18,292 bases of DNA from a virus (taxonomy: Duplodnaviria > Heunggongvirae > Uroviricota > Caudoviricetes), in the IMG/VR virus record IMGVR_UViG_2718218361_000001; one strand, written 5' to 3'. A model generated the notes under the pieces. The model had not been told where the DNA came from, made no database searches, and worked only from the letters and a program-made list of their open reading frames with translations. A program made the translations under genes and the position numbers. This document shows positions 1 through 18,253 of this stretch, one piece after another (the stretch's first letter is position 1; each line of letters begins with the position of its first letter).

Positions 1-1374
1 ATGTTAGTTAGTAAAAACAACGAATTTAACACTAGCTCATTTATAGATAGTGGAAATTGTAATGAAAGAAAATCTTCTGAATCCATGGAGCTACTAGCTT
101 ATAGTATTATAAATTTAATTTGTAAGAAAGCTGCCTCAGGGACGTATCGCGGTGCTCTTGAAACTTTACAAAAAATGATGTCTGAATGTATATATCATGA
201 AGGCAACGCCTTTGTCATTATGGGAGTTGGAGAACAATTAAAACGTATTAAATATGAAGTTGGTGAAAATAACTTAAAGGTATTCAACGTACACTTTAAT
301 AATAATCACGAGTTAGTTAGTTCTGGTGAGCCTGACGTAATATGTTTAAGCAAGCAGGTCTGGGAAAATCTTCTCATTAAACTAAAGCTGGAAAACAATG
401 AAAATGTGTTTTCTGAAACTAAAAAATTATCGAATAAAAATAATGACGATCAGTTTTTTGAATGCGCTAAAAGAAATGAACAGAACCTTTTCGATAATAT
501 AAGAAAAAGTGATTTTCATGTTGGTTTACTTAAGCCAAGTAGTACGCGTAGTGTTATTTTAGAAACGCCGCCAAATGTCTGTATGGAATCACGTAATTCA
601 TATGAAAACAAAATAGATGAGATTTCATCTTTGTCAGAGTCAAAGGAACACCCCATAGATATTCAAGAAAAAAAAGATGCGTTTGTGAATGAGTTCAAGG
701 GGGTATTATTTGATAAAAATACAAGGTCTTCAGAGCTTCTGTTTAATTTTTATGAGTGTTGCTATAAGTTTTTACCAAGAGCTCAGCCTCAAGATAAAAT
801 CGATAGCTATAATTCAGCACTGCAAGCTTTTTCCATTTTTTGTTCATCTACGTTGACACATAATAATATAGGCTTTGATTTCAAATTATTTCCTGAAGTC
901 AAGCTGTCTGGAGAACATCTTGAAACGGTATTCAAATACAAAAATGGCGATGATGTCCGGGAGATAGCCAAAATTAACATTACTCTCCAAAAAGAAGAGG
1001 GTGGTTTATATAATTTACGTGGATTGGATTTTAAGGGGTGCTTCTTTTCTGGACAGAACTTCAGTAACTATGATATTCAATATGTGAACTGGGGAACGTC
1101 ATTGTTTGATGTTGATACTCCGTGTATTTTTAATGCGCCTGCTTACAACAAGAGTAATGAAAAATCATTAAAACCTGTGAGCGAAAACGGTTTAAGTGGA
1201 GTATTGACTGATCGTAATAATAAAATAAAACTCATCACGGGCGTGGCACCATTCGATGATATTTTATTTATGGATGATGACTTTGATGATAGTTCCTCTG
1301 AGGATGATCCCGTTGAGAATAGTCCTGTTGTGACTAGTCCCGTTGTATCAAGTTCTAAAAGCAGTTTTCAATGA
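1..1374 (+). CDS. Hypothetical low-GC protein (457 aa ORF), possibly 5'-truncated by the window edge; short pentapeptide-repeat-like stretch and acidic Ser/Asp-rich C-terminal tail
   Basis: Long uninterrupted ORF in an AT-rich segment. Translation contains YNLRG-LDFKG-CFFSG-QNFSN (pentapeptide-repeat-like) and a DDDFDDSSSEDD tail. ATG sits at position 1 so the true start cannot be confirmed. No recognisable catalytic motif. Confidence 0.55.
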   Translation: MLVSKNNEFNTSSFIDSGNCNERKSSESMELLAYSIINLICKKAASGTYRGALETLQKMMSECIYHEGNAFVIMGVGEQLKRIKYEVGENNLKVFNVHFNNNHELVSSGEPDVICLSKQVWENLLIKLKLENNENVFSETKKLSNKNNDDQFFECAKRNEQNLFDNIRKSDFHVGLLKPSSTRSVILETPPNVCMESRNSYENKIDEISSLSESKEHPIDIQEKKDAFVNEFKGVLFDKNTRSSELLFNFYECCYKFLPRAQPQDKIDSYNSALQAFSIFCSSTLTHNNIGFDFKLFPEVKLSGEHLETVFKYKNGDDVREIAKINITLQKEEGGLYNLRGLDFKGCFFSGQNFSNYDIQYVNWGTSLFDVDTPCIFNAPAYNKSNEKSLKPVSENGLSGVLTDRNNKIKLITGVAPFDDILFMDDDFDDSSSEDDPVENSPVVTSPVVSSSKSSFQ

Positions 1375-1530
1375 TTAATAAATGGCAATTTTTACAAAGA
1401 GATAATAACGTAGATTGAAACAATATGTATTATTGATTGAGTAAACGGGATTATTCTTCACACTACATCCATTTTAGTGTCACTACCAAAGAAAAAGGGG
1501 CTACGTTTTCATGTAACCCCTTGATTTATT

Positions 1531-1560
1531 TGGTGGGCTGGCAGTGACTGAATTGGTGCT
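1531..1560. repeat. Degenerate copy of the ssrA 3' end (att-core-like remnant)
   Basis: tatttggtgg-gctggcagtgactgaat here resembles tatttggtggagctggcgggagttgaac at the ssrA 3' end (17887-17915) and the second copy at 5706-5733. Alignment done by eye. Confidence 0.4.
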
Positions 1561-1643
1561 GTAATTGGTTGAAATATTTCATCTAATGTCTGGTTCAACT
1601 TTCCTTAGCTGCCTGAAAGTTTTTTGATCTTACCCAGCAATAA

Positions 1644-1745
1644 CAGCGTTACGGTGCACCACGCCTGACTGAAGAACTGCGTGCTCAGGGTTACCACTTC
1701 AACGTAAAACCGTGGCAGGAGGTCCGGACTGAAAAAACTGGTCAG
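1644..1745 (+). pseudogene. IS3-family transposase (OrfB-like) fragment
   Basis: Frame translation [22 protein letters not shown] matches, from memory, the conserved [22 protein letters not shown] block of IS911/IS3-type transposases. Only about 30 codons; flanked by stops; no start or RBS. Confidence 0.5.
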
Positions 1746-1758
1746 GACATTATCGGCG

Positions 1759-1880
1759 GTGGACGCACGGGTAGTCTGTAAACCGAACCGACTGGGGCGC
1801 AGTATGTGGCATCTTGTCGTGCTGTTGGAGGAGCTGTGCAAACGTGGTATTAACTTTCGTGCTCTGGCCCAATCTATATT
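1759..1880 (+). pseudogene. Serine recombinase (resolvase/invertase family) internal fragment
   Basis: Translation NRLGRSMWHLVVLLEELCKRGINFRALAQSI resembles the conserved resolvase/invertase block (LDRLGRS...L..L.ERGI.F.SL.DSI). Catalytic N-terminus and C-terminal HTH are absent. Confidence 0.55.
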
Positions 1881-2285
1881 TGCCCAACAATGGGGGGACG
1901 AATGCTGTAAAAGTAAAACAATCTGCGATCTCAAAGTTATTGTGTGATTTTTATGTGAGCAGAAGATATTCATCAGAAACGATTATGTAAATCATTTTAT
2001 TTTGCCAACGGCCTCATTGTCGAAAGAAAAGAATACGCCCGTATTTCCTGAATGGATTGACTTTTTTATCCAACCACACTTCAGCGCACTGCGTTTAAAA
2101 AATGCCTCATTCTTATGCGGAATATCATCATTTCATCATGATGTCTTTGATGAGCGGTGAACACAATACACTTGCGCTGTCTCTTCAGGATGAATCCCCT
2201 GGTCTGGTGCCTGTGGGCTGATGTTGCAGCAGAGCTAAGGTCGCTTAAACGCTACTCAGTATTCACTTTTCAGAGGATGAAATTT

Positions 2286-5200
2286 ATGAACAGGACCAGT
2301 CCCCATTATTGTCGCCGCTCAGTACTTTCCTTATTGATATCTGCCTTGATATATGCCCCGCCTGGGATGACGGCCTTCACTCCTGATGTTATTGGTGTGG
2401 TAAACGATGAGACTGTAGATGGCAGCCAAAGAGTAGATGAACGAGGTACAACAAATAACACTCATATTATCAACCATGGCCAGCAGAATGTTCATGGCGG
2501 GGTATCTAATGGAAGTCTTATTGAATCGGGTGGATATCAAGATGTAGGAAGTCATAACAATTTTGTGGGGCAGGCTAATAATACAACCATTAACGGAGGA
2601 AGACAGACAATTCATGACGGGGGCATTTCCACCGGTACGATAATCGACAGTGGCAATCAGGACGTTTATACAGGTGGTATCAGCAATGGAACGACAATTA
2701 AGGGTGGTAATTCACACATAAGTGGGGGGACTGCGAATGGAACCATCATTGATGGTGGAGGGCAGAAAGTAACAACTCAGGGGCATGTTGATGGTACAAC
2801 GATAAATAAGTCCGGTTATCAGGACATCACGCAAGGAAGTATTGCAACGAACACAATCATAAATGGTGGACGACAGTATGTTGAACAGAGCACAGTAGGA
2901 ACAACCACCATTAAAAATGGCGGTGAGCAAAGAGTATATGAAAGCCATGCGCTGGACACGACGATTGAAGGTGGAACTCAGTCTCTGAATAATAAGTCAA
3001 CGGCAAAAATACTCAGATCTATTCTGGTGGTACGCAAATTGTTGATTACACCAGCTCCTCGGATGTTATTGAAGTTTATTCCGGTGGCGTGCTTGATGTT
3101 AGTGGTGGTACGGCAACAAATGTTACCCAGCACGATGGTGCAATTTTAAAAACAAACACTAACGGTACGACGGTGAGCGGTACGAATAGTGAAGGTGCAT
3201 TCTCCATCCACAATCACGTGGCAGACAATGTGTTGCTGGAAAACGGTGGTCATTTAGACATAAACGCATATGGTTCGGCAAACAAGACGATTATTAAAGA
3301 TAAAGGAACAATGTCAGTTTTAACGAATGCTAAAGCTGATGCGACCCGAATAGATAACGGCGGGGTAATGGATGTTACCGGAAACGCGACCAATACCATA
3401 ATCAATGGTGGTACACAGAATATTAATAATCATGGTATTGCCACGGGTACCAATATCAACGGCGGAACGCAAAATATCAAGAGCGGCGGGAAAGCTGACA
3501 CGACAATTATATCCTCCGGGAGCCGGCAGGTTGTTGAGAAAGATGGTACGGCAACTGGCAGCAATATTAGCGCCGGAGGCTCGCTGATTGTCTATACCGG
3601 TGGTATTGCACATGGGGTTAACCAGGAGACGGGCAGTGCTTTAGTTGCCAACACGGGCGCAGGGACTGATATTGAAGGATACAACAAGCTCTCTCACTTC
3701 ACTATTACCGGAGGGGAGGCTAATTATGTTGTGCTGGAAAATACCGGCGAACTGACGGTAGTGGCTAAAACCTCGGCGAAAAATACTACCGTTGATGCTG
3801 GCGGTAAGCTGATTGTCCAGAAGGAGGCTAAAACAGATACCACCAGACTTAATAATGGTGGCGTTCTGGAGGTTCAGGACGGTGGTGAGGCTAAGCATGT
3901 TGAGCAACAATCCGGCGGCGCATTAATTGCTTCCACAACTTCCGGAACCCTTATCGAAGGAACCAACAGTTATGGTGATGCTTTCTACATCAGGAATTCA
4001 GAAGCTAAAAATGTAGTGCTGGAAAACGCTGGCTCATTAACAGTCGTCACTGGTTCCCGGGCAGTTGATACGATTATTAATGCCAACGGCAAAATGGATG
4101 TTTATGGAAAAGATGTTGGCACTGTACTCAATAGTGCTGGCACCCAAACAATATATGCCAGTGCCACTTCTGATAAAGCAAATATCAAAGGTGGCAAGCA
4201 AACGGTATATGGATTAGCCACTGAGGCAAATATCGAAAGTGGTGAACAAATTGTTGATGGTGGGTCAACAGAGAAAACACACATCAATGGTGGCACGCAA
4301 ACCGTTCAGAATTATGGTAAGGCAATCAATACCGATATCGTCTCTGGCCTACAACAAATTATGGCAAACGGGACAGCGGAAGGTTCCATTATTAATGGGT
4401 GTTCACAGGTAGTTAATGAGGGCGGTCTGGCTGAAAACTCGGTGCTTAATGACGGCGGCACACTCGATGTGCGGGAGAAAGGCAGCGCAACGGGGATACA
4501 GCAGAGTAGCCAGGACGCTTTGGTTGCAACCACCAGGGCGACGCGGGTCACAGGAACACGCGCGGATGGCGTCGCGTTCAGCATCGAGCAGGGTGCGGCG
4601 AACAATATCCTGCTGGCAAATGGCGGCGTGTTAACCATGGAGTCAGACACCTCTTCTGACAAAACACAGGTCAATACGGGCGGACGGGAGATCGTCAAAA
4701 CAAAAGCCACTGCGACAGGCACGACGCTCACCGGCGGCGAACAAATCGTCGAGGGGGTGGCGAATGAGACAACGATTAACGACGGCGGAATACAAACAGT
4801 TTCAGCTAACGGAGAGGCAATAAAAACAAAGATCAATGAAGGCGGTACGCTGACAGTTAACGATAATGGCAAAGCGACAGATATCGTCCAGAACAGCGGT
4901 GCCGCTCTCCAGACGAGCACGGCTAACGGTATTGAAATCAGCGGTACTCACCAGTACGGCACTTTTTCCATTTCCGGCAATTTAGCGACCAATATGTTGC
5001 TGGAAAATGGCGGTAATTTATTGGTATTAGCAGGTACCGAAGCTCGCGACTCCACGGTTGGCAGCGGTGGAGCCGCCAACGGCAGTTATCGCAGCAACGG
5101 GCTGGGCGGTCACATTGAAACCGGGATGCGATTTACCGATGGTAACTGGAACCTGACGCCGTATGCATCGTTAACGGGGGTTCACCGCTGATAACCCTGA

Positions 5201-5546
5201 ATATCATTTATCCAATGGCATGGAATCGAAATCAGTCGATACCCGCAGTTTATATCGTGAACTGGGTGCAACGCTGAGTTACAACATGCGTCTGGGGAAC
5301 GGTATGGAAGTTGAGCCGTGGCTGAAGGCGGCTGTGCGCAAAGAATTTGTCGATGATAACCGGGTGAAAGTGAATAGTGACGGTAATTTCGTCAATGATT
5401 TGTCGGGCAGACGTGGAATATACCAGGCAGGTATTAAAGCCTCATTCAGCAGTACGTTAAGCGGGCATCTTGGGGTGGGGTATAGCCATGGTGCCGGTGT
5501 GGAATCCCCGTGGAACGGGGTAGCTGGTGTGAACTGGTCGTTCTGA
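2286..5546 (+). pseudogene. Autotransporter adhesin (AIDA-I/self-associating type) disrupted by frameshifts
   Basis: ATG 2286 with GAGGA 8 nt upstream and a signal-peptide-like N-terminus (MNRTSPHYCRRSVLSLLISALIYA). About 900 aa of degenerate passenger repeats (IxGGxQ, NGGxL) spread over three reading frames. Frame changes sit at an A5 tract (3005-3009) and a G5 tract (5176-5180). C-terminus ends in an aromatic-rich barrel-like segment ...GVNWSF, but the barrel part looks short. Confidence 0.65.
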
Positions 5547-5555
5547 CCATCAACG

Positions 5556-5580
5556 AAAAAGCCCACATCTGTGGGCTTTC
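5556..5580 (+). terminator. Rho-independent terminator-like hairpin after the autotransporter gene
   Basis: GCCCAC-atct-GTGGGC stem-loop (5561-5576) followed by TTTC, 15 nt after the TGA at 5544-5546. A-run upstream means it could act in both directions. Confidence 0.5.
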
Positions 5581-5705
5581 ATGTCACCAGGAGCCGCGGC
5601 TCCTTTGCGTATCCTTTTATGTCTCTTCACCGTCTGGTCGGTGTCCTGCTGAGACTGCTAACTTCCTGTTTTTATTGGTGTTGTCCTTATACCGTCCAAT
5701 CATGA

Positions 5706-5733
5706 TTGGTGGGCTGGCGGAGTATGAATTTGC
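5706..5733. repeat. Degenerate ssrA 3'-end copy; candidate distal att site of the satellite
   Basis: ttggtgg-gctggcgg-agtatgaatttgc resembles ttggtggagctggcgggagttgaacccgc at the ssrA 3' end, roughly 24 of 30 positions by eye. It lies just outside the left arm-type repeats. Confidence 0.45.
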
Positions 5734-5781
5734 ATATTATATTGTTGTTTTTATTGTATATTTATTTTTATGGTCTTTATT

Positions 5782-5805
5782 GGTATACCTAAGCGTATAC
5801 CAATA
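5782..5805. repeat. Integrase arm-type-like repeats, left end of the satellite
   Basis: GGTATACCTAAGCGTATACCAATA matches CGTATACCTAAACGTATACCAATA at 17757-17780 at 22 of 24 positions. Contains two (G/C)GTATAC units 12 bp apart. Confidence 0.5.
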
Positions 5806-5897
5806 GCGGGGTGCAATACTTATTTAACTTAAAAAAAATCATCCCTAAATAGGTCGTTTTATATTCAAAAAACAAAAAAAATCTTTTTTAAATAAGT

Positions 5898-5975
5898 TGT
5901 TCACACTGTTCACTTAGGGTTTTTATCATTCAAAATCAAGGTAATAGAAGTTAACTGTATGGTGAAGAGTGAACA
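5898..5975. repeat. crr-like iteron cluster downstream of the primase gene
   Basis: TGTTCAC at 5898-5904 and 5907-5913, and inverted GTGAACA at 5969-5975. The P4 alpha-binding octamer is TGTTCACC (from memory). Confidence 0.5.
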
Positions 5976-6000
5976 GATAACTCTACATTCTTGCGCCAGC

Positions 6001-6026
6001 GAAAACAAAACCCGGCATCAGCCGGG
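6001..6026 (-). terminator. Rho-independent terminator for the primase operon
   Basis: CCCGGC-atca-GCCGGG hairpin (6011-6026) which on the minus strand is followed by TTTTGTTTTC, 12 nt after the primase stop codon (6038-6040). Confidence 0.65.
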
Positions 6027-6037
6027 TTAGTTGCAAA

Positions 6038-8371
6038 TTATTTTATTGTTGGCTCATCGCACTTGGGTAGCCAGTCTGCATTACTCTCTTCTTTTAAGGT
6101 GAGGTTAGTCTGCATTCCCTGATTAGTTCGCCGCTTCTCATAATGTAGCCCGTACTCCTTCAGCATAACTGGTAGCCCTTTGCCAAACATTGTCAGGCTG
6201 AGGGTATTTTTATAGCCATTAGCCTCCATGTATACGAGATAAGCATGGTAAAGGTATGTACGTGGCTGGCGCGGGACAATATTGGCGTTTCCCATAAACA
6301 TGCCGTTGGTGTCGGGTAATGCCTCAAGATAGCCACAAAAATCAAATGCTGGATCAGCATCACGCTTGATGGTGAGAGCCTCATCAGAATTCTGCTGCGA
6401 CTGAAGCAATGTTCTGGCACTCATCGGATCACTGAAACGCTGCATGAGCTGGCGAACAATCACAGCAAGTTCTTGAGCAATTTTATCTTTTAGCTGCGGA
6501 TCGCGTTCTTCCGGTGCTATCTGCTCAGGAAAATGCAGAATAACTCTCCGGCGAGACACACCACCACTGCGATCAGTGAAGCGCATAGGATTATTATTTA
6601 CGGCCAGGATAACCGCCGGAATATGTGTTGAATAAGCATTCTGATATTTGGGGTCCACAGATACTGCATCGCCACCGGTTATAGCCTTAAGCCCGGCGCC
6701 ATCGCCGCTCCACTTCTCCTGATCAGGCAGGCGAATAAGAGAAAAACCGATCAGAGCTGCACGTTCTCGCGGGGACTCCAGAGTTTCAATTGTCGCTGAG
6801 GTGGCGTTATCCTCTCCTGCAAGCATCGTTGCAATTTCAGCAAGGATACTTTTGCCACTTCCGCCAGGGCCAGTCACTTCCAGAAAGAGCTGCCAGTCAT
6901 AGCGGTTCGCCAGCACCATAAACAGCGCTGCGAGAATAATGTCGCGTTTTGCTGGCTTGCGCCCGGCTGCCCTGTCCAGCCAGCGCCAGAATGCCGGGGC
7001 ATGAGTTTCAAGCGTTTCCCCATTTACCGGTGGCGTGAAATCAACTTCACACAGGGTACGCAGCCACTTCTCTTTACAGTGCGGACTAAACAGCCCTGTT
7101 CGCGTATCGAGGACGCCATTACGAAAACCGATCAGATGACGTGCCGGATTTTGCTGCTGCGGAACAATTAACTTTAATGTTTCCACCAGTGAGGCAATCT
7201 TTCCTGAGGAAAACGGTGCACCGAGGCGCTGGAAAAGGGCTGCGACATCTCGGGCAAAATCAGACTGAGAAATCACTTTCCACGCCCCAGACTCATAGCG
7301 GGATAAAAGCTGCCCGTTCGGATCAACCGCCAGCGCATCCCTGTAATGCTCCCGAACCCTCTGAGCTTTTTCGCTGACACTCATCGCTGTGAATTCTGCT
7401 TCACTCATCGTGTCGAAAGGACTGGCGTTATGTGGCCTCAAAGCCTCAAGAATTGCCTTCCGGGTGGATTCCTCTCCGTAATGGGCAAGCGCATCATTCC
7501 AGTCACCAAAAACCGGTGGCAGCACAATGTCACACTGACACGCTTTTGCAGCAGCTTCAGCCCTGTTCTGGCCTGAACCATTCAGATCTCGGTCCGCTGC
7601 AATAATTAGCTGATACCCCGGATACTTGTTATGGGCAACGCTGGCCAGAGAAAGAAAGTTGACCGCCGAAAATGCCACCATGACGGCTTCTCCAGTCAGA
7701 TGATGAATGGTAAGCGCCGTGGCGTAGCCTTCCGTAATCCACATTCTTCTTACTGAACTCCCGCCCCCTTCTATCAGATGATAGGCCTCCTTAACCTGAC
7801 CTCCTTTAAGAAAACACTTGCTACCATTGCTACTGATAAGCTGAATATTCACCAGCTCCCCGTCAGCGTTATAGAGCGGGACGATCAAATCACCGGGGCG
7901 GAACATCACCCCACCGGTTTTATGAGCTGAAGTCAGCTCATGGCAAATATGTTCCGGGAAACCTTTATGTGTAAGATAAGTATTTCCGGCAGATTCGCGC
8001 GAGGCTTGCAGCAGTCGCGCGGCAAGTGCTGCCGCTGCATCTTTCCCGCTATTGGTATCGGCGGTTAACGTCCTGACTTCGGAATTAGCTATAGACAGGC
8101 CATGTGTCATTCCATGTATCCTGTCAGCTGCTTCACTGATATCCACATTCAGTGCCCTGGTGACAAGCGCTAAACCATCCCCGGCTCCGCACTGATTGCA
8201 GAACCATGTTCCACGTCCTTCCTGATCGTCGAAGCGAAAACGATCTTTACCGCCACAGACCGGACAAGGCTGATGGCGATTTTTCAATATATTCACGCCC
8301 AGCGCTGGCAGAATCTGAGCCCAGTGACCGCGGGCAGCCTTCACGGCCTGACTGACTTTCATTCCTGACAT
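6038..8371 (-). CDS. P4 alpha-type primase/helicase (phage/plasmid primase, P4 family), 777 aa
   Basis: ATG at 8371 with GAGGGAGAA 7 nt upstream. N-terminal zinc-binding CPVCGGKDRFRF...CNQCG, a primase-like central region, and Walker A GPGGSGKS in the C-terminal NTPase domain. Length equals P4 alpha as I recall it. The ORF track's upstream in-frame Met lacks an RBS. Confidence 0.9.
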   Translation of the reverse strand: MSGMKVSQAVKAARGHWAQILPALGVNILKNRHQPCPVCGGKDRFRFDDQEGRGTWFCNQCGAGDGLALVTRALNVDISEAADRIHGMTHGLSIANSEVRTLTADTNSGKDAAAALAARLLQASRESAGNTYLTHKGFPEHICHELTSAHKTGGVMFRPGDLIVPLYNADGELVNIQLISSNGSKCFLKGGQVKEAYHLIEGGGSSVRRMWITEGYATALTIHHLTGEAVMVAFSAVNFLSLASVAHNKYPGYQLIIAADRDLNGSGQNRAEAAAKACQCDIVLPPVFGDWNDALAHYGEESTRKAILEALRPHNASPFDTMSEAEFTAMSVSEKAQRVREHYRDALAVDPNGQLLSRYESGAWKVISQSDFARDVAALFQRLGAPFSSGKIASLVETLKLIVPQQQNPARHLIGFRNGVLDTRTGLFSPHCKEKWLRTLCEVDFTPPVNGETLETHAPAFWRWLDRAAGRKPAKRDIILAALFMVLANRYDWQLFLEVTGPGGSGKSILAEIATMLAGEDNATSATIETLESPRERAALIGFSLIRLPDQEKWSGDGAGLKAITGGDAVSVDPKYQNAYSTHIPAVILAVNNNPMRFTDRSGGVSRRRVILHFPEQIAPEERDPQLKDKIAQELAVIVRQLMQRFSDPMSARTLLQSQQNSDEALTIKRDADPAFDFCGYLEALPDTNGMFMGNANIVPRQPRTYLYHAYLVYMEANGYKNTLSLTMFGKGLPVMLKEYGLHYEKRRTNQGMQTNLTLKEESNADWLPKCDEPTIK

Positions 8372-8385
8372 GATGCAGTTCTCCC

Positions 8386-8709
8386 TCAGTGTAAAACTGG
8401 CTTTTTGATGTGACGGACGCATAACTCATCCATTACGGCTATTCCGAGCTGGGAGAGTGCGGGACAGGACATTAGAGGGCCGGATTCCATCAGGTCTGAA
8501 AGCAGGGCGCAGGCGATTTCCATGCCTTTTGTTTGCCCGTGCTGTCGCAGATAAAATCCTTCAAGCTCACGGGCAATAGCGGTTTCAATTTCATCCAGAG
8601 TCAGCTGCAGGTGGCGGTTTTGCTGATGGCAGGCACTCAGCCATGCGCAGGCTACCGCGCGGCGATACAACGCTACCCGAAGTGAAAGGGAAAGAGTGCG
8701 TGATTTCAT
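8386..8709 (-). CDS. Hypothetical protein (107 aa), immediately upstream of the primase
   Basis: ATG at 8709 with GGAGG 7 nt upstream. Start overlaps the stop of the preceding gene (ATGA). Stop lies 15 nt before the primase start. Confidence 0.6.
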
Positions 8710-8930
8710 TGCACCACCTCCATGTTCATCAGGTCATCCTGGCAACGTTGTACCACGCCATCAAGCTGCTCTGTCATCAGATAAATCAGGGAAACCAGTT
8801 GCTCACATTGAGCATTGGCAGGTTTTTCGTAGCAATCCTGAAGAACAGCCATTCCGGTGACAAGCTCCCCCACGTTACGAAGATGCTTCAGGCGGACAAT
8901 ATCGTCATAAGAGATTGCGGCGTGATTCAT
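8706..8930 (-). CDS. Hypothetical protein (74 aa)
   Basis: Internal ATG at 8930 with GGGAGG 7 nt upstream. Start overlaps the stop of the upstream 63-aa ORF. The longer ORF-track version (87 aa) lacks an RBS. Confidence 0.55.
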
Positions 8931-9121
8931 CACATCACCTCCCGGACAGGCAGGCGAGCAGCAAGGCAAAGCACATACTCATGGACCAGTGAAAGACGTG
9001 CATGATACTCATCGCTGGCGACAATACGCAGCATACTGATACGTGGTTTACGTTCTGCACGACGAACGGCGGCAAAAACAAATATAAATTGAGGATGTGA
9101 TGGGGCGAGGATCGTAGCCAT
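8930..9121 (-). CDS. Hypothetical small protein (63 aa), first gene of the coupled small-ORF cluster
   Basis: ATG at 9121 with GGAG 9 nt upstream. It is the C-terminal 63 codons of a 197-aa ORF whose upstream part has no RBS and a GC-rich, structured character. Confidence 0.4.
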
Positions 9122-9324
9122 AAGGGCAATCTCCAATAAGTAGCGGTTATTGCCACCACCAGAGCTGCAAATCTCATGGGTGATGGCCCGGACGGGGTTT
9201 GCAGTACCGGCCTTATTGGAAACCGGCCAGCCCGAAGGCTGCCCCGCCCGGACCACCATTATCTGACAGGAGCCACGGTGTAAGCACCACAGCCCGAAAA
9301 ATAGGTGTGCCTGAGCAACGACAT

Positions 9325-9346
9325 AAAAAAACACGCTCGACGCGTG
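9325..9346 (-). terminator. Candidate rho-independent terminator between the AlpA-like gene and the small-ORF/primase operon
   Basis: On the minus strand a CACGC-gtcga-GCGTG hairpin (9332-9346) is followed by a U7 run (A7 at 9325-9331 on plus). Stem is only 5 bp. Confidence 0.4.
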
Positions 9347-9474
9347 CTGTGTCGCCAATAAGTTACACGGGCTGCAAATCCCGGCTGCCGATTTTGCGGC
9401 AGCAGAAAAACTATAACTGGAAAGCTTGCCAGGACGCAAGCCACAAAAAAAGAGATGAGACTGCAAAGCCAGAT

Positions 9475-9735
9475 TCACGCATGGTCTCCTTGCTCGCGGG
9501 CTGCAATTCGCGCCGCCATCCATGCATTGACCTCCGACTGTACCCAGGCAACATTTTTTCCACCCAGGGAGATCTGCTGCGGGAAGGCATCACGGCTGAT
9601 AAGGTCGTAGATGGTTGAACGGGATAGCCCGCAAAGGTGCATCACTTCAGGTAATCGTATGAAGCGCTCCTGCTCAGTCGGAACCGGGAGCACCGGAGCA
9701 GCTGGTGCTGGGGTGGAAACGGAAATAGTATGCAT
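9475..9735 (-). CDS. AlpA/Vis-family phage transcriptional regulator (excisionase-like HTH), 86 aa
   Basis: ATG at 9735 with AGAGAGG 7 nt upstream. Translation [46 protein letters not shown] has the AlpA-type HTH signature. Confidence 0.8.
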
Positions 9736-10270
9736 CTCGCTACCTCTCTAATATGTTTTCAGTAGTCCGGACAATTCCATCCGGATTCAGGTAGTTCCTT
9801 ATTATGTTCATATAAGCGGCTCGCGCATGCTTTATTTAATTAGAGTGAAATATTGACTTCTCAAAAAATAAAACAGCTAAAAACCGGATAAAACGGACAA
9901 AAACAAATCATTCCCTCATGGAATATAATAAGGAGCTTCAAGAATAAAAAAGTCTATTACACCAAGCAGGATCGCCGCTCAAGTCTGTACCAGACCATAT
10001 CATTCCGGGCGTTACATCATAAGGATGAAAACAGCGCCGGAATAATAAAAGGGCCAAAAAACGTTCATAAAAAACAGTTCATCATATGTATTAATTAAGT
10101 TAATGGCTAAAAAAATTAAATTACCCGCATCCTTCCGAATTTATCCGGATGTGTTTAGTGAGCATCAGACAGATTCATTTTTATGGATATTTTCCTGAAA
10201 TGCAACCGAGTGTAGGGAGGTTAAGTGTTGAATTTTTAAACAGACATAAGACACATTTTATACTGTATAT

Positions 10271-10484
10271 TGAATAGTGTTGAATACGTGTGAATAGTGG
10301 TGAGGAATAAAAATCCAGTAATAAACTGAAATAAATATAGCGATTTATATGAAAAACAAATATAAGTTTAAATTTATCTCTGTGAACAGTCATGAACAGT
10401 AGATGACCACTTTTATTTAAACCCTACACTCCTTAACCACATGTATTTACTATTCTTTTATGAAAGTGAACAGTAGTGAATAGT
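10271..10484. repeat. ori-like iteron cluster in the AT-rich divergent region
   Basis: About seven copies of GTGAA(C/T)AGT at 10271, 10281, 10291, 10382, 10393, 10466, 10476. Their reverse complement contains TGTTCAC/TATTCAC, the same core as the repeats at 5898-5975. The two clusters are about 4.4-4.5 kb apart. Confidence 0.5.
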
Positions 10485-10549
10485 ATGTATTAAAGGAAGG
10501 GTGAAGATCAGACATGACACCTTTCTCTGGCTAGCCAGAACAAGGTCAT

Positions 10550-10567
10550 TGTTCAGTCACTGGCACA
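10550..10567 (+). promoter_or_regulatory. Candidate Ogr/Delta-dependent late promoter element (TGT-N12-ACA dyad) upstream of the Sid-like gene
   Basis: TGT(10550-10552)-tcagtcactggc-ACA(10565-10567), 73-90 nt upstream of the ATG at 10640. P2/P4 late promoters carry such a dyad near -55 (established knowledge). No clear -35; -10 is weak. Confidence 0.4.
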
Positions 10568-10639
10568 ATCCTCATCGGTAGTGCGCTTGTATGGGCACCG
10601 GCACAATTGACACAACAACAAAACACTACCGGAGCAGCC

Positions 10640-11392
10640 ATGACAACTGTTAACCAGATCCCTGATGCAAACATTACACCCTCCCTCCCACCGAAAATTC
10701 GCGAAGCGGTAGAAAAAGTTAAAGCAGCAAAAGCTGTCTGGCAGGAAGAACGGCGAATACAAACTGAAGCCGCTGCAATGACTGAAACTATCCGTAAACG
10801 TCAGGAAGATACAAAAACGGAGACGCAGGCGCTTAATGATGAATGGCGAAACCTGTTTCGTGAGAATCAGGGGAATATGACGCCACGAATGAAAAAACTG
10901 CGGGCAGAAATCGCCCTGGGACGCGAAACACTTGATGAGTTCGAAGATTTGCTTGAAGCTCACGCCGCAGAAAAAGAATTCCTGCCCTGGAAAACTGCGG
11001 ATGCTGCAAACCGCTACATCAGCGAACATAACCGGCTGATTGAAACTCATGCAGAGTGGCTCTGGAATGAGTTTATGAAGGAACACGGCCAGAAACTTAT
11101 TCAGATCCTTGGATTGCTGAAAATGACTCTGGGGCGAAGCGCTTCTTCCGTTATCGGCGTAGTTCATACCGTAAACGACCCCGAAAGTGTGCTGAAGCAA
11201 TTTATCAGCGAGCAACTCACCGCTCCGGCACTGTCCTGTAACGTATCTTCAACGGATGTTATTGCCCTGCCGGGGATTAGCATTTATGCGGACGATAAAG
11301 CCCTACAGGATGCCAGACAATCACCCAGCCCTGCAGCGCGTTCCCGGATGCTTAAACAGCGTGACATGGTTAAAGGGGAAGAGAAGGGATGA
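10640..11392 (+). CDS. Sid/Psu-family protein, candidate capsid size-determination (Sid-like), 250 aa
   Basis: ATG at 10640 with GGAG 5 nt upstream (ORF-track start 10607 is a TTG without RBS). First gene of the late operon as in P4. Shares the NEFMKEHGQKL block with the Psu-like product (ENFMSEHGNAL) and MTPRMKKLRAEIA with the paralog at 12237 (VTPEMKALRAEYL). Stop overlaps the next start (ATGA). Confidence 0.7.
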   Translation: MTTVNQIPDANITPSLPPKIREAVEKVKAAKAVWQEERRIQTEAAAMTETIRKRQEDTKTETQALNDEWRNLFRENQGNMTPRMKKLRAEIALGRETLDEFEDLLEAHAAEKEFLPWKTADAANRYISEHNRLIETHAEWLWNEFMKEHGQKLIQILGLLKMTLGRSASSVIGVVHTVNDPESVLKQFISEQLTAPALSCNVSSTDVIALPGISIYADDKALQDARQSPSPAARSRMLKQRDMVKGEEKG

Positions 11393-11943
11393 ATCCTGGA
11401 AACATTACTAAGGAAGCTCTCAACAACTATCGCGCGGAGATAAAAAGCTGGCTGACACTACGTAATGTGCAAAGTACCAGCCAACTTCGTCTGGCGGCTC
11501 TGCTGGATACTGAAGAAAAACCGGCAGCATATGCCAGCCAGCTTGAGAATCTTCGTGAGCGTCTTGCTCTCCTCGAATGGCAGATTAACTGCGCCGCTAG
11601 GGACGGTCTTTATGCTCACCAGATTGTGCTGGAAAGCTGTGTTACAAGCGCAACTGAAAACTTCATGAGCGAGCATGGTAATGCACTCACTGACGCTCTG
11701 GCTCCTTTTCTTTGCGCACCATACGGGCTTGAGGCGGCAATGAAAATATTACGCACCGCTGTAGTCCGACAAACCGAAATCCGTACTCCTGTAATTTCAG
11801 CAGCATATAAGAGCGTTATCGACGAAACCGGATTAACGGTGGATGCATCAATGCGAGCTGATGCTTCAGCCATTTTCACCCCGGCAAAACATAAAGTTTT
11901 TCTGGCCCGCCTCAACAGGCTTAATGAAAAAGGAGGGTACTGA
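11389..11943 (+). CDS. psu: Psu-like protein (polarity suppression / capsid decoration family), 184 aa
   Basis: ATG at 11389 preceded by a purine-rich stretch. Blocks EHGNALTDALAP and FTPAKHKVFLAR resemble my recollection of P4 Psu (QHGTALAAALAP, FTPAQNMIFSRK). Size close to P4 Psu (190 aa). Confidence 0.75.
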   Translation: MNPGNITKEALNNYRAEIKSWLTLRNVQSTSQLRLAALLDTEEKPAAYASQLENLRERLALLEWQINCAARDGLYAHQIVLESCVTSATENFMSEHGNALTDALAPFLCAPYGLEAAMKILRTAVVRQTEIRTPVISAAYKSVIDETGLTVDASMRADASAIFTPAKHKVFLARLNRLNEKGGY

Positions 11944-11944
11944 T

Positions 11945-12217
11945 ATGGCCCTGAAATGTCCTGAATGTGGCACGGTCGCACACGCCAGAACCAGCGCCTA
12001 TGAAGCTCCATCGGTTAAACGCTCATGGTATCAGTGCCAGAATCTTGAATGCTCCTGCACATTTACTGCCCTGGAAAGTGTGGACACGATAATTATGAAG
12101 CCCCATAAACCAGTGGCGCCTGAACCTGAATCACAGAGCGATTCTCTTGTACGTCAGCCGCATACACTGGGCCGCTACGGTTCAGCCTGTACCCTTAAAG
12201 ACCGTCATGCACAATAA
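11945..12217 (+). CDS. Ogr/Delta-family zinc-finger late transcription activator, 90 aa (single domain)
   Basis: ATG at 11945 with GGAGG 8 nt upstream, 1 nt after the Psu stop. CPECGTVAHARTS...WYQCQNLECSCTFTALESV matches the Ogr/Delta signature (recalled P2 Ogr: CPLCQHAAHARTS...YHQCQNVNCSATFITYESV). Confidence 0.85.
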   Translation: MALKCPECGTVAHARTSAYEAPSVKRSWYQCQNLECSCTFTALESVDTIIMKPHKPVAPEPESQSDSLVRQPHTLGRYGSACTLKDRHAQ

Positions 12218-12236
12218 ATTGGGGAGGAACAAAAAT

Positions 12237-13049
12237 ATGACAGAACAACAATTGACGGAAAACCAGATTCAGGCCGCAACCGGACACGTAGTAACACTCC
12301 TCGCGAGGGCAAAAAAACCGCTTCAGGATGCGGATTGGCTCATGAATTTGCCTGCAAATGAAATAGCCCGCGAGACGGAAAAACTGACAAAAAGCCTTTC
12401 CTCCGACTGGCAGTCCCGAATTATCGACCTTTACCAAAAAATGCAGGCCTGGGTGGAGGCCAGACAGGCCGAAGAAGCAGCCATTGAGAACCTTCGGGCT
12501 CTGCGCCAGCATCAGACCGAAACTGAGCAGGCCAGCAAAGACAATCGGGCGCAGTTCAGGGAACTGCTTAACCAGAGCGGCGGCATCGTAACGCCGGAGA
12601 TGAAAGCTCTCCGGGCTGAGTATCTGGAACAACAGGAAACAGCCACAGAACTCGCCGGGCTGATTACTGAAAAAGAAGATCAGCTGCCGGTACTGGCTCA
12701 AGCGACCACGCGTAAAGCAAACGTCTATATAAACTGCCATCATGGCATCACTGAGGAGCGTATCGATGAGCTTTTACGAGACTTTTTTATTTTCCACGGT
12801 GCCGAATTGAGCGGCCTGCTCAGGATGAAGTACAGACAATTTGAGCGATATAGCTCAGCACATATACCGGGCATTATTGAAGGCACAAATGATGCAGATA
12901 CGCTGTATCGTGAATTTATCCTGAATCTAATGCTGAAGTGGACGAATGAAATATTACCGTTAAGATTCCGGGACGACGTGATGAGCCTGACCGGTTCAGC
13001 TCCGGTATCAGGATCGCATGACGACAGAAAAAAAAGTAAGCTGTTTTGA
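12237..13049 (+). CDS. Second Sid/Psu-family paralog, 270 aa, function unassigned
   Basis: ATG at 12237 with GGGGAGG 9 nt upstream (ORF-track start 12147 lacks an RBS). Coiled-coil-like; shares sequence blocks with the Sid-like gene at 10640. Followed by a strong terminator. Confidence 0.7.
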   Translation: MTEQQLTENQIQAATGHVVTLLARAKKPLQDADWLMNLPANEIARETEKLTKSLSSDWQSRIIDLYQKMQAWVEARQAEEAAIENLRALRQHQTETEQASKDNRAQFRELLNQSGGIVTPEMKALRAEYLEQQETATELAGLITEKEDQLPVLAQATTRKANVYINCHHGITEERIDELLRDFFIFHGAELSGLLRMKYRQFERYSSAHIPGIIEGTNDADTLYREFILNLMLKWTNEILPLRFRDDVMSLTGSAPVSGSHDDRKKSKLF

Positions 13050-13073
13050 CCTGAACAGAAAAGCTCACTTAAG

Positions 13074-13095
13074 CCCGGCCAGTGCCGGGTTTTTT
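13074..13095 (+). terminator. Rho-independent terminator of the late operon
   Basis: CCCGGC-cagt-GCCGGG hairpin (13074-13089) followed by T6 (13090-13095), 25 nt after the stop at 13047-13049. Confidence 0.7.
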
Positions 13096-13236
13096 GATGT
13101 CTATAGCCTGAGTGCATGTCTATACTGCATGAAATCGCATGACTTTATGCACTTGCATTTTTACTTCCCAGACCAGATAAGGCGCGGTTTAGAGCCTATC
13201 ATGCAACTGCATGAAAACCACTCCCTAAAGCGGGCA

Positions 13237-13255
13237 GGCGTGGCGGGGCTACGAG
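13237..13255. other. Candidate cos-like site (P2/186-family cohesive-end-like sequence)
   Basis: GGCGTGGCGGGG matches the first 12 nt of the P2/186-type 19-nt cohesive end as I recall it (GGCG[A/T]GGCGGGGAAAGCA-). The remaining 7 nt diverge. Position between the late operon and the cargo matches where cos sits in P4. Confidence 0.3.
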
Positions 13256-13629
13256 CGCGCGCTTCGAGGTAAAAGGATGCCGAGCATACAACTCATCGAT
13301 AATGCGGTAGGGTAAATAAGGGGGGGGGCTTGCTATTTTGTACGCTGTAAGGAAGCAAAAGGAAGTCAGTGAGCTAGGGTTAAACAACCCAGCGTATGAG
13401 GTTAAAGTCTAAAATTGAGAACAGCCGTATATGGAGTAATAAAAAGGTGAGGTTGAATCTTTGAGAGGCTGTTTATCAAGGCATAAACCTCTATAGGATG
13501 CATGGTTTTGCATGTGTTTAAATGTTACGCCAATTTAGGCCAACGCCTTTAGGGCGTGGCCTATTTCCATCTTTGCAACTCCATCAAATGCGTCTTCATG
13601 ATGAAGATGAGGATTAGGCGGAAATTGAA

Positions 13630-15399
13630 TTAAAGACGCCACAGACTCTCAAGATCGAGCGTGTCACTTTGCGGTGCACTTTCTTCAGAAAGTCTATCGA
13701 TCTGCACAAGAAGCGGAGTATGAAATGCTGTTCCCGAAATTATGCATGCGCCTGGAGGAAGGGTAGGTATAAGTGTTCTGGATGCTGCATCTAATGTACT
13801 TAAGGTGTTTTTAAGAAGGTAAAGGTCGTTTTCATTTACCAAGCGATGTATGAAATAATTATGAAGTTGTGATACGATTGTTGGCGATATATCAAATGGT
13901 CGCTGGCTTGAAATAGTTACAAAATAACCAAACTTCCTACCTTCCTTTATTATCTCCTCAAATAATTCAAGTCGATAATCTTTCCAAGTCTCAGCCTCCC
14001 TCACAGAGCTTTCGGAAAGAATGTTGTGAGCTTCATCTATTATTAAATGAAAACTTTCTTTTTTGTTGTCCGAAGACTTGTGTTCTATGAAGGAACATTT
14101 CGCAATCATCATCGGAATCGTTTTTTTTATGGTTTGATTGCATTCTTTGAGAGAGATTATGGATATTGGTTTATAGCTTTGTTGAGCGCGGTTTATTTCT
14201 ATAACCTTTGCTAGAGATGAGCTCATTGCTATTATTTTGTTTATCAAAGGATATATGTGATCATATTGAACATAGTTTCTGGATACAGAATTTATTAATT
14301 GCAGTGTTGCACGTATAGCAATTTCATCAAATACACTAGTAACATGGAATTGGCTATTGTATGTTGCTTGAGTGTGTTTTAAAACTTCAGCAGTAGTGTC
14401 AAGCCAACCCGAAGGGTGTGTATATTTTTCTTGGTTTGAATGCCAAGTAAAGAGAGAGAGTTCATCTCGTATCTTTTGTTGATCGTTCTCATCGAAATAA
14501 GGCAGTAGACTTTTTAATAAATTAACGGTCTCTTTGTGAGGATTTGTTCCAAACATTATTTCAATTGTTCTTTTTAAATATGTGTTAAGATCGTCATCAT
14601 ACTTTAACTTGCTCTTTATTAAATGTGTAAGAAATGGTTTTTGTGTTTTCTCGGTTGCAGAGAATAAAACTGACAACAGTTCATCATCCCAAAATTCTTT
14701 TTCACCGAAATATATCTTATCACCATCTTTTTTTGTGCTAAGTTTTGTGGAGTGACATAGTTCTGGAAAGGAATTCTCTAATGTCCCATATTCACCATTG
14801 AAATCAATCAATACGAAATTTGACTTATCGATCAATTGTTGTTTGTTTTCAATTCTATTGAAAAGTGATTGATATATTTTTGCTAGAGTATTTGACTTTC
14901 CACTTCCTGTATTTCCAAAAATACCTATATGAGAATTAAAAACACCGTTTATGGGAATGTTTATTGGTAATTCCTCTAGCATGGATTTGCCAATGTTAAT
15001 GAGCGGAGTTTTTGTATTTTTGCTAAAACTATAGATTTCAGATATTTTATCATCCGAAATTAAATAAAGTCTATCATTTATCATTGGGAGATATTTTATT
15101 CCAGAGTAGAATTTACCCTCAAAAAAATACCCGAGAATATTTAGTTCAACGAATCTTTCATATTTTTTCTGCTCAATGTCATCAGTACGAATGTTAAAGT
15201 TCTCAACAATTTCCTCACCTATGATCTTACCTACAATGTCCTGATAACCTTTACGAACTAATACAAATTCATTTATTGATATACCACGCAATATTTTTCC
15301 ATTGTGGAAGTATGTTGATTGGAACAAGTCATGGTTTATTTTTGCTTTGACAGTGGTTCCTTTTACTTGGGTCACTTTACCTATATTCAGTTCGTCCAT
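13630..15399 (-). CDS. HerA-like (FtsK/HerA superfamily, DUF87-type) ATPase, 589 aa; second gene of the cargo pair
   Basis: ATG at 15399 with AGGAGA 9 nt upstream (ORF-track start 15408 is a TTG). Walker A GIFGNTGSGKSNT and Walker B HLIIDEAHN; N-terminal beta-rich region before the ATPase core. About 28-30% GC by hand count. Overlaps the upstream gene by 13 nt. Confidence 0.85.
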   Translation of the reverse strand: MDELNIGKVTQVKGTTVKAKINHDLFQSTYFHNGKILRGISINEFVLVRKGYQDIVGKIIGEEIVENFNIRTDDIEQKKYERFVELNILGYFFEGKFYSGIKYLPMINDRLYLISDDKISEIYSFSKNTKTPLINIGKSMLEELPINIPINGVFNSHIGIFGNTGSGKSNTLAKIYQSLFNRIENKQQLIDKSNFVLIDFNGEYGTLENSFPELCHSTKLSTKKDGDKIYFGEKEFWDDELLSVLFSATEKTQKPFLTHLIKSKLKYDDDLNTYLKRTIEIMFGTNPHKETVNLLKSLLPYFDENDQQKIRDELSLFTWHSNQEKYTHPSGWLDTTAEVLKHTQATYNSQFHVTSVFDEIAIRATLQLINSVSRNYVQYDHIYPLINKIIAMSSSLAKVIEINRAQQSYKPISIISLKECNQTIKKTIPMMIAKCSFIEHKSSDNKKESFHLIIDEAHNILSESSVREAETWKDYRLELFEEIIKEGRKFGYFVTISSQRPFDISPTIVSQLHNYFIHRLVNENDLYLLKNTLSTLDAASRTLIPTLPPGACIISGTAFHTPLLVQIDRLSEESAPQSDTLDLESLWRL

Positions 15400-16502
15400 G
15401 TTACCCAATCTCCTGTTTCTGATTTGAAAATTCTATCAATAAAAGTATCAAAAGAAATTTTATGATCAACTTCTTTAGGATAAATGAAGGTTATTCTGGG
15501 GTCATTTACTGTATTATTTATATCTTGCTTGCTTTGATTGTTGTAGCAAAAAACAAATACTTTTAGTGTTGGATTACTTAAAGATCTTTTTATTATTTCA
15601 AGAATGTGCTCGTCTTGAAATGAAAACCCAAAACAAATTAATACAGTTTGTGGTTTCTCTAATTCATAGCTTAATAATCTTAAGCTCTGATAGTAGTGTT
15701 GCTGAAATACTGTTTCTGAAAACTTTTCTTTGGTCGGATTAACTATCGCGAGTGAGTTATAGTATGATTTGAATTCTTCAAGAGAATTTTGGTCATTAGC
15801 ATTTAAATCCAAGTAATCAGCAAGATCATCGTTAGTTGTATTTAGGGTAATTACTAAATCATCTATGGTTTTATCTGTCTCTAAATTTATTAATTCAGGT
15901 GAAACGCTTGGGTAGTTGATGCTTATTGTTTCATTCTCATCTCTTTTCCATGAGACCGAACCATGCATTTTAATTAAATTGATAGTTGGTAACTCATGTT
16001 TGTACATATCATGAGTTCCTTGATGCCAAGTAGTAATATGAAAATTACTAATGTTTAATCTTCTGTTTTTAAAACCTATAGCACCATCATTGAAATGGAA
16101 TGTTTTCTTAGCTAATGCATTGTCTGCTGCTGTTTCAAAAAAAAGATCATAGTTAGTTGTGAAAATATTGGCTCGTCTTATTTGATTGGAACCTTTTTTT
16201 TCTAATAAAGTAACAAGTTCATCTAGAAAATCTGTATAGCTATTTATTGTTGAGGTGTATTTTTTGTTTTCTACACTTGGCTCAATGCAAAATGTTTTTC
16301 TAATGATTTTATTGAAATAAGAACATAAGATAAAATCCTTAACATCGATACAATCTTTATGCGTTAATAATGTCTCATAAGTGGTGTTTTCAGCAAGCCA
16401 CAGCGTTGGTATATACGATGCTGAAGCTCCTGAGCCAAATAGAAAGTTAATATTTTTATCATAAATATTTGATGCTTTGCATGGGAATTCTCTCGTGCTC
16501 AT
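15387..16502 (-). CDS. SIR2-like (sirtuin-fold, predicted NADase) protein, 371 aa; first gene of the cargo pair
   Basis: ATG at 16502 with AAGGA 8 nt upstream, only 10 bp after the integrase stop. Motifs FLFGSGASAS (glycine-rich loop), TTNYD and MHGS (His-Gly) are typical of SIR2-family domains. AT-rich like its partner. Confidence 0.85.
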   Translation of the reverse strand: MSTREFPCKASNIYDKNINFLFGSGASASYIPTLWLAENTTYETLLTHKDCIDVKDFILCSYFNKIIRKTFCIEPSVENKKYTSTINSYTDFLDELVTLLEKKGSNQIRRANIFTTNYDLFFETAADNALAKKTFHFNDGAIGFKNRRLNISNFHITTWHQGTHDMYKHELPTINLIKMHGSVSWKRDENETISINYPSVSPELINLETDKTIDDLVITLNTTNDDLADYLDLNANDQNSLEEFKSYYNSLAIVNPTKEKFSETVFQQHYYQSLRLLSYELEKPQTVLICFGFSFQDEHILEIIKRSLSNPTLKVFVFCYNNQSKQDINNTVNDPRITFIYPKEVDHKISFDTFIDRIFKSETGDWVTWTN

Positions 16503-16512
16503 TTTTATATCC

Positions 16513-17706: not shown

Positions 17707-17728
17707 TGTGGCCGCTCCTTCATGAGTT

Positions 17729-17775
17729 GGTATACGCTTTTAGGTATACATCCTACCGTATACCTAAACGTATAC
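17729..17775. repeat. Integrase arm-type-like repeat cluster between int and ssrA
   Basis: Four (G/C)GTATAC units starting at 17729, 17743, 17757 and 17769 (spacing 14, 14, 12 bp). The last two are duplicated at 5782-5805. Confidence 0.5.
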
Positions 17776-17890
17776 CAATAATCACAGGATTTAGCCGGAT
17801 ATTGTCGGACAACGACAGACACAAAAAAGCCCGCAGGGCTTATGCCGTGCGGGCTTTCTGTACTTCACCGGACGAATCCGGATCATTATT

Positions 17891-18253
17891 TGGTGGAGCT
17901 GGCGGGAGTTGAACCCGCGTCCGAAATTCCTACATCCTCGGTACTACATGCTTAGTCAGTCTTTACATTCGCTTGCCAGCTGCGGACGGACACGCCACTA
18001 ACAAACTAGCCTGATTAAGTTTTAACGCTTCAACCCCAGGCAGGGCTTCCACGCGATCTCTTTTGGGTTTGACCTCTCTTGATCCCCGTCCTAAGAGCGG
18101 AGGCTAGGGAGAGAGGGCTCTAAGCAGGTTATTAAGCTGCTAAAGCGTAGTTTTCGTCGTTTGCGACTATTTTTTGCGGCTTTTTACGAGGCCAACCGCC
18201 CCTCGGCATGCACCTTGGGTTTCGCAAATCCCGTCGAATCCAGAATCAGCCCC
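17891..18253 (-). ncRNA. ssrA: tmRNA (SsrA), 363 nt
   Basis: Reverse complement begins GGGGCTGATTCTGGATTCGACGGG and ends GGTTCAACTCCCGCCAGCTCCACCA, matching E. coli ssrA as I recall it. Contains GCAAACGACGAAAACTACGCTTTAGCAGCTTAA, which encodes the ANDENYALAA tag peptide. Confidence 0.95.

Follow-up and report, generated by a model that had tools for sequence, protein, structure and literature searches.

Two clusters of short TGTTCAC-type repeats lie on either side of the primase gene in the viral record IMGVR_UViG_2718218361_000001 (IMG/VR), and the question raised by this locus is whether they serve the replication of the element that carries them. The record is a stretch of 18,292 nucleotides, called here the window, to which the chromosomes of Escherichia coli S21 and H14 are 100% identical; it contains a P4-like satellite prophage of ~12.2 kb (about 5729-17890) at the E. 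coli ssrA gene. An earlier note, made from the letters of the sequence, had compared the two clusters with the ori and crr sites of P4, which are bound by the primase-helicase alpha. The results indicate, with a probability of slightly over four in five, that the clusters are the cis-acting replication sites of this P4-like satellite prophage, namely an ori at 10380-10486, accompanied by weaker repeats at 10271-10303, and a crr consisting of a single unit at 5870-5990. This reading is based on sequence homology, synteny, statistical enrichment and cross-genus conservation, from which we infer binding, looping, the unwinding site and firing.

The count of TGTTCAC across the window, proposed in the earlier note as a check, showed a clear enrichment. 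The exact heptamer occurs nine times on the two strands, where 2.06 +/- 1.48 copies would be expected; in 200 shuffles this number was never reached. Five of these copies fall inside the two clusters, at 5898 (+), 5907 (+), 5969 (-), 10382 (-) and 10466 (-), and four are scattered elsewhere, at 2157, 4242, 4400 and 16796. Likewise, the degenerate form ACTRTTCAY gave seven matches in the window (0.68 expected; 0 of 200 shuffles reach seven), six of them within the two clusters. The repeats described downstream of the primase gene, at 5898-5975, were found as three exact copies and a fourth, degenerate one, TCTTCACC (5961-5968, -). At 10271-10484, where about seven copies had been reported, that number holds for the degenerate form (TGAAYAG/ACTRTTCAY; 10270, 10280, 10290, 10382, 10392, 10466 and 10476) but not for the exact heptamer, which is present there in two copies, 10382 and 10466.

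The same two regions were recovered with a 10-bp matrix derived from the 16 type-1 repeats that NC_001609, the P4 record, lists: the two densest clusters of matches in the window are exactly those named beforehand, and 10289-10507 contains four matches scoring 9 bits or more and seven scoring 7 bits or more. In whole-window Markov-1 simulations the denser cluster was reached in 0-5 and the second cluster in 0-1 of 500 runs, depending on the threshold and window size, while simulations that used the local intergenic (dinucleotide) composition only reached the observed counts in 0-3 of 2000. These units were also obtained with an unbiased repeat finder, as D2, D7 and D11 for ori and I5 and I6 for crr.

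In the P4 record, crr occupies 4291-4590, with the attP arm sites on one side and the alpha terminator on the other, and consists of two 120-bp direct repeats with five type-1 repeats each, while six ori type-1 repeats are annotated at 9310-9413, between orf88 (vis/alpA) and sid. The window shows the order of this annotation, and the two clusters can be aligned base by base with those of P4, which bears out the P4 ori/crr arrangement suggested for the flanks of the primase operon. The coordinates of all features are given in Table 1; the annotation is based on the RefSeq record of H14, Pfam, Rfam and ARAGORN.

In the ori core two good direct iterons come first; the next two, a third direct and an inverted one, are degenerate, and an AT-rich block then separates them from two further direct iterons. 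The cluster as a whole covers 10289-10484. The AT-rich block at 10433-10462 is a candidate unwinding region. At the two degenerate positions most of the family has GGTGAAYA (third direct) and CTGTTCACC (inverted). The triplet of TGAATAG-type repeats at 10271-10303 is located roughly at the place of the P4 type-2 repeats. In the blastn comparison of P4 with the window the matches include crr, alpha, cnr and the immunity region and end before the ori core, so the homology of ori rests on the MAFFT alignments and the common iteron layout. A megablast search of 5500-10700 against a phage collection gave no P4 match and only an unrelated attP/tmRNA (transfer-messenger RNA) fragment, P4, at ~72% identity, being below the sensitivity of megablast.

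The crr-like unit consists of an A-run/T-run (5865-5891), two direct iterons, an AT-rich spacer of ~45 bp and inverted iterons, in this order. In the direct-iteron stretch 16 bases, TGTTCACACTGTTCAC, are identical to P4 4314-4329, and the + strand of the inverted iterons, GGTGAAGAGTGAACA, aligns with P4 GGTGAAGGGTGAACA with one base different. The iterons of this cluster (5896-5977) are placed ~170 bp from the attR core, between the arm-type repeats and the alpha terminator.

The presumed initiator belongs to the same type. The alpha protein of the window shows 73% identity to P4 alpha across 773 amino acids and contains the Pfam domains Zn_Ribbon_Prim, Toprim_3, D5_N, DUF5906 and Pox_D5. Its residues 671-770 match chain A of PDB 1KA8, the solved origin-binding domain of P4, over the full 100 residues (E = 1.7e-48). 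The P4-type initiator architecture is thus present: a Zn-ribbon/Toprim primase, a superfamily 3 helicase and a C-terminal winged helix. Just upstream of alpha, in the P4-type position, there is a homologue of Cnr, the negative regulator of P4 replication.

To place the window among its relatives, one genome per GTDB species was scanned, which gave 80 loci encoding alpha relatives; the family counts refer to 53 loci of other Enterobacterales, from many genera, with alpha at least 56% identical. Flanking sequence was long enough in 42 loci, and 40 of these had an ori-type cluster 1.65-2.65 kb upstream of alpha; a crr cluster was detected in 46 of the 53, of which 37 start no more than 400 bp from the alpha stop and nine at 0.7-3.2 kb, beyond inserted cargo. 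The crr unit is single in 31 loci and double, as in P4, in 15, and the single unit is the commoner state in the family. In multi-genus alignments the flanks diverge, while conservation extends to the iterons, to the order and orientation in which they occur and to the AT-rich block of ori, a pattern that would be expected from purifying selection on cis-acting sites. The spacing of the clusters, which the earlier note had taken as a sign of a functional bipartite origin, does not add to this evidence. The inner crr-ori distance ranges from 4.03 to 7.09 kb (median 4.25) in 35 related loci; because it follows the content of the intervening genes and varies among loci, it reflects the length of the alpha operon and nothing beyond synteny, and it was rejected as independent evidence.

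Several features weigh against the assignment. The earlier note referred to the octamers bound by P4 alpha, and P4-type repeats do occur in both clusters, but none of their iterons has the full octamer TGTTCACC: the end base is A or T, and the final C is kept only in the degenerate TCTTCACC copies at 5961 and 10500. The top matrix scores are 14.4 and 14.1 bits, compared with the 15-17 bits typical of P4. In ori the third direct and the inverted iterons, well conserved in the rest of the family, are degenerate, leaving four of six canonical iterons, and in the crr two of the six canonical positions of the family alignment are degenerate and four are left. The P4 type-2 repeats (CAYTTAAAGY, three copies) were not found in or near the ori region with one mismatch allowed; their absence is not taken as disqualifying for a P4-type replicon, as to our knowledge no role of these repeats in P4 has been established. 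Finally, the attR core reproduces the ssrA 3' end imperfectly, with indels relative to 17882-17913, and for this reason excision of the prophage may be inefficient. A full-text search of the literature for TGTTCACC returned primer lists only.

Such features might also be read as erosion, the clusters being homologous to P4 ori and crr but non-functional in a decaying relic prophage. We regard this as unlikely. The degeneration of two canonical iterons at each site, the degenerate attR core and the decay of the flanking CP4-57-type DNA (frameshifted ypjA, recombinase fragment) point in this direction, whereas all genes of the element are intact and of full length (alpha has 777 residues, as in P4) and the remaining iterons and the AT-rich spacer are conserved. 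Moreover, the degenerate ori pattern is also found in the closest relatives of the window, L042 (Enterobacter, alpha 97% identical) and L066 (Scandinavium, 82%), and the degenerate crr pattern in both of these and in L053 (Kluyvera, alpha 88%), in which no ori cluster was detected. In L042 and L066 the crr falls below the threshold, yet a recognisable unit lies 1.37 kb downstream, past an inserted gene. To judge from these sequences, the recurrence of the changes argues for a stable lineage trait, comprising the degenerate iterons and the extra triplet, and not for decay in one strain. An altered DNA-binding domain was considered as a companion of the degenerate iterons and rejected: the C-terminal domain of alpha has no substitutions separating the lineage of the window from relatives with canonical iterons.

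A further possibility, which we consider decidedly doubtful, is that the sub-lineage of the window (with Enterobacter and Scandinavium, and with Kluyvera for the crr changes) has a stably remodelled origin, possibly a distinct replicon type. The changes would be the loss of the inverted iteron of ori, elsewhere nearly invariant, and of its third direct iteron, the gain of the TGAATAG-type triplet and the reduction of crr to four iterons. If this were true, the stoichiometry of alpha, the unwinding site or incompatibility could be altered, allowing the element to coexist with other P4-like elements in one cell.

It is very improbable that the repeats are instead sites for transcription or recombination proteins, with those at 10271-10484 regulating divergent alpA and sid promoters and those at 5898-5975 serving as Int or excisionase arm sites. 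The ori cluster does lie in a divergent promoter region, where sigma-70-like hexamers overlap some iterons, and the crr cluster is close to the attR core and, where relatives have inserted cargo, is still found on the att side. However, the sigma-70-like matches of the promoter scans do not exceed what shuffling predicts, and both sites share one motif, one of them being downstream of a terminator, where no promoter is expected. A different repeat, GTATACC...GGTATAC, present at both ends of the element, suits the arm-site role, and the iterons are absent from the int-proximal end. The conserved dyad at 10519-10546 is a separate element, presumably the activator site of the late promoter (Psid) and not a part of the origin, and the P4 record designates the homologous sequences ori and crr. 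As to chance clustering from the AT-rich composition of the intergenic DNA in which both clusters lie (31-38% G + C), it is refuted by the whole-window shuffles, which never reach the observed count, by the local-dinucleotide simulations and by the conserved position of the clusters in about 40 loci of other genera.

For the clusters as ori and crr, the mechanism would be that of P4. According to work on P4 by Ziegelin and co-workers in 1993, Ziegelin and Lanka in 1995 and Yeo and co-workers in 2002, the C-terminal winged helix of alpha reportedly binds the type-1 iterons of ori and crr, both of which are said to be required in cis, alpha unwinding and priming and Cnr limiting initiation. In the window, after excision and circularisation, the winged helix of alpha would bind the TGTTCAC-type iterons at ori and crr, with a proposed occupancy of four (and three weak) sites at ori and four at crr. 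The bound sites could then be bridged across the alpha operon of ~4.4 kb, and the helicase domain would open the conserved AT-rich block between the iteron blocks of ori. The Toprim primase domain would make primers to be extended by the host polymerase, and the Cnr homologue would restrain initiation. For the binding by alpha, this scheme draws on the annotation of the P4 record and on secondary statements (PMC4234260, PMC6092414, PMC8628076).

Table 1. Features of the window around the P4-like prophage, in order of position (coordinates in nucleotides).
Feature	Position	Strand	Remarks
attR core	~5698-5728	.	degenerate copy of ssrA 3' end, left end of element; local alignment with 17882-17913
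Arm-type repeat	5778-5805	.	TATTGGTATAC...GTATACCAATA; recurs near int, 17727-17780; distinct from iterons; repeat-finder unit I2
crr-like unit	5870-5990	.	one copy of the P4 crr repeat (~120 bp); alignable with the two P4 repeats and with crr units of 16 other loci; matrix cluster
crr direct iterons (two)	5898-5914	+	TGTTCACA 5898-5905; TGTTCACT 5907-5914
crr inverted iterons (two)	5961-5975	-	TCTTCACC 5961-5968; TGTTCACT 5968-5975
Intrinsic terminator of alpha operon	6009-6028	-	between alpha and crr; P4 t-alpha annotated at same relative place
alpha primase-helicase, presumed initiator	6038-8371	-	777 amino acids
alpha C-terminal origin-binding (winged-helix) domain	6062-6361	-	residues 671-770
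Cnr-like protein (DUF5375)	8386-8709	-	71% identity to P4 ORF106
Open reading frame, 74 amino acids			listed between Ash/Icd-like frame and cnr homologue
Ash/Icd-like open reading frame	9176-9416	-	encloses C4-type and isrK RNAs (Rfam)
alpA/vis	9475-9735	-
AT-rich intergenic region			905 bp, alpA to sid-like gene
Weak copies (TTGAATA type)	about 10270-10288		TTGAATAGT at 10270; TTGAATACG at 10280
Upstream triplet of weak iteron-like repeats	10271-10303	-	TGAATAGTG / TTGAATACGTG / TGAATAGTGG; common to L042 and L066; repeat-finder unit D11
Degenerate-form copies			GTGAATAGT at 10290 and 10476; GTGAACAGT at 10382 and 10466; ATGAACAGT at 10392
ori iteron core	10380-10486		aligns with P4 ori core (MAFFT) and 20 family members; between alpA and sid
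ori direct iterons 1 and 2	10381-10398	-	TGTTCACA 10381-10388; TGTTCATG 10391-10398
Degenerate third direct and inverted iterons	10402-10432	.	GATGACCAC 10402-10410; CTACACTCC 10424-10432; from family alignment
Conserved AT-rich spacer between iteron blocks	10433-10462	.	family consensus TTAACTTACTGTATTACTTATCTTTTTT
ori direct iterons 5 and 6	10465-10482	-	TGTTCACT 10465-10472; TATTCACT 10475-10482
Psid-like dyad just upstream of sid	10519-10546	.	ACCTTTCTCTGGCT/AGCCAGAACAAGGT; kept in family and P4; repeat-finder I5; ~35 bp beyond ori core
sid-like gene	10640-11392
psu	11389-11943
delta	11945-12217
Open reading frame without assigned function	12237-13049	+	270 amino acids; between delta and cos
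cos site	about 13181-13262		80% identity to P4 cos junction
HerA-type ATPase gene	13630-15399	-	589 amino acids; PADLOC E = 7e-200
SIR2 gene	15387-16502	-	371 amino acids; PADLOC E = 3e-66
Integrase (int)	16513-17706	-
tmRNA gene (ssrA)	17891-18253	-

The element has the P4-like core gene set in the P4 order (int, cos, psu/delta/sid, alpA, immunity RNA, alpha), bounded by att repeats, and looks complete, with int, cos, sid/psu/delta, alpA, the C4/isrK immunity RNA and att sites. Rfam matches to the C4 antisense RNA, isrK and the c4-a1b1 target were obtained on the - strand of 9176-9416, inside the 'Icd-like/Ash' open reading frame. This is the P4-type RNA immunity region, and because it occupies this interval the protein call may be partly over-called. 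The interval from alpA to the ori region includes an AT-rich segment of ~380 bp (9754-10135) without counterpart in P4, where the alignment shows a gap. This segment contains several internal direct and inverted repeats and no open reading frame of at least 50 amino acids, and an Rfam search of 9700-10700 at E <= 1 gave no match.

The genes for SIR2 and the HerA-type ATPase (13630-16502, -) sit between int and cos, an interval known as a defence hotspot in P4-like satellites, and the pair looks, from its sequence, like an anti-phage defence system borne as cargo. The open reading frame of 270 amino acids had no match in Pfam or PADLOC and is perhaps a second, small gene of cargo or hotspot type. 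To the left of the element (1-5500) there are remnants of a CP4-57-type island, including ypjCB, a recombinase fragment, a frameshifted ypjA/ehaD autotransporter and a separate beta-barrel open reading frame. The sequence at 5556-5728 resembles a tmRNA pseudogene/attP of the phages LLS and Ayreon, and the attR region may bear scars of successive integrations.

The survey also revealed variation in the organisation of related elements. In about a fifth of them 0.7-3.2 kb of extra genes lie between the alpha terminator and crr, which remains on the att side (L005, L014, L030, L039, L043-L046, L049, L042 and L066). Besides the int-psu hotspot, P4-like satellites may have a second point of cargo insertion in the alpha-crr interval. 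Two separate crr-type clusters, about 1.9-2.1 kb apart, were found downstream of one alpha gene in L004, L028 and L054, and may derive from tandem or remnant satellites. In L056 (Morganella) and in L059 and L060 (Yersinia), whose alpha is ~40% identical, clusters with related but different motifs (ATGAACA; CTGAAYAC) occur downstream only, no cluster having been found upstream of alpha. Likewise, in L052 (Zobellella, alpha 46% identical) 11 canonical iterons lie downstream, while upstream no iteron was detected. As these distant alpha homologues show clusters only downstream, one may speculate that the crr position is the ancestral site of the origin.

P4-like elements can be found in almost half of E. 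coli genomes (PMC8628076). The system described here is an ordinary new example of the well-studied P4 ori/crr, and the exact coordinates now placed for the cis-acting replication sites of a P4-like prophage matter little beyond annotation. In a wider sense, P4-like satellites from many genera of Enterobacterales have kept the ori/crr layout that was established by experiment in P4. The variable ori-crr distance, the commoner single crr and the cargo between alpha and crr can help to delimit P4-like elements and to design P4-based vectors.

Compared with P4, the window has the same synteny (att, crr, terminator, alpha, cnr, alpA/vis, ori, sid), the same type of initiator, with its origin-binding domain kept, and the same iteron core TGTTCAC. 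The layouts also agree: in ori, one inverted iteron follows three direct ones, and an AT-rich block precedes two more direct iterons; in crr, an A/T tract is followed by two direct iterons, and a spacer by inverted iterons. The differences concern the number of crr repeats (two of 120 bp in P4, one unit in the window), the eighth base of the iterons (C in P4, A or T in the window), the third direct and inverted ori iterons and two crr iterons, which are degenerate in the window, and the type-2 repeats of P4, at about the place of which the window has the TGAATAG-type triplet. Moreover, the alpA-ori interval is ~380 bp longer than that of P4, and the inner crr-ori distance is 4.31-4.40 kb, compared with 4.73 kb in P4.

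Iteron plasmids of the R6K type offer a looser parallel. Their initiator likewise binds repeats at two loci kilobases apart, the pi protein looping the gamma origin to distal origins; it belongs to an unrelated family, being of the Rep/pi type and not a primase-helicase fusion, and the sequences are not related. Satellites of the Gram-negative phage-inducible chromosomal island type (pri-rep-ori, e.g., EcCICFT073) also have a primase/replicase of their own that acts on two sets of iterons around an AT-rich region, but their origin is a single site beside the pri-rep gene, whereas the window has two separated sites, and their Pri-Rep proteins differ in sequence from P4 alpha (PMC6092414).

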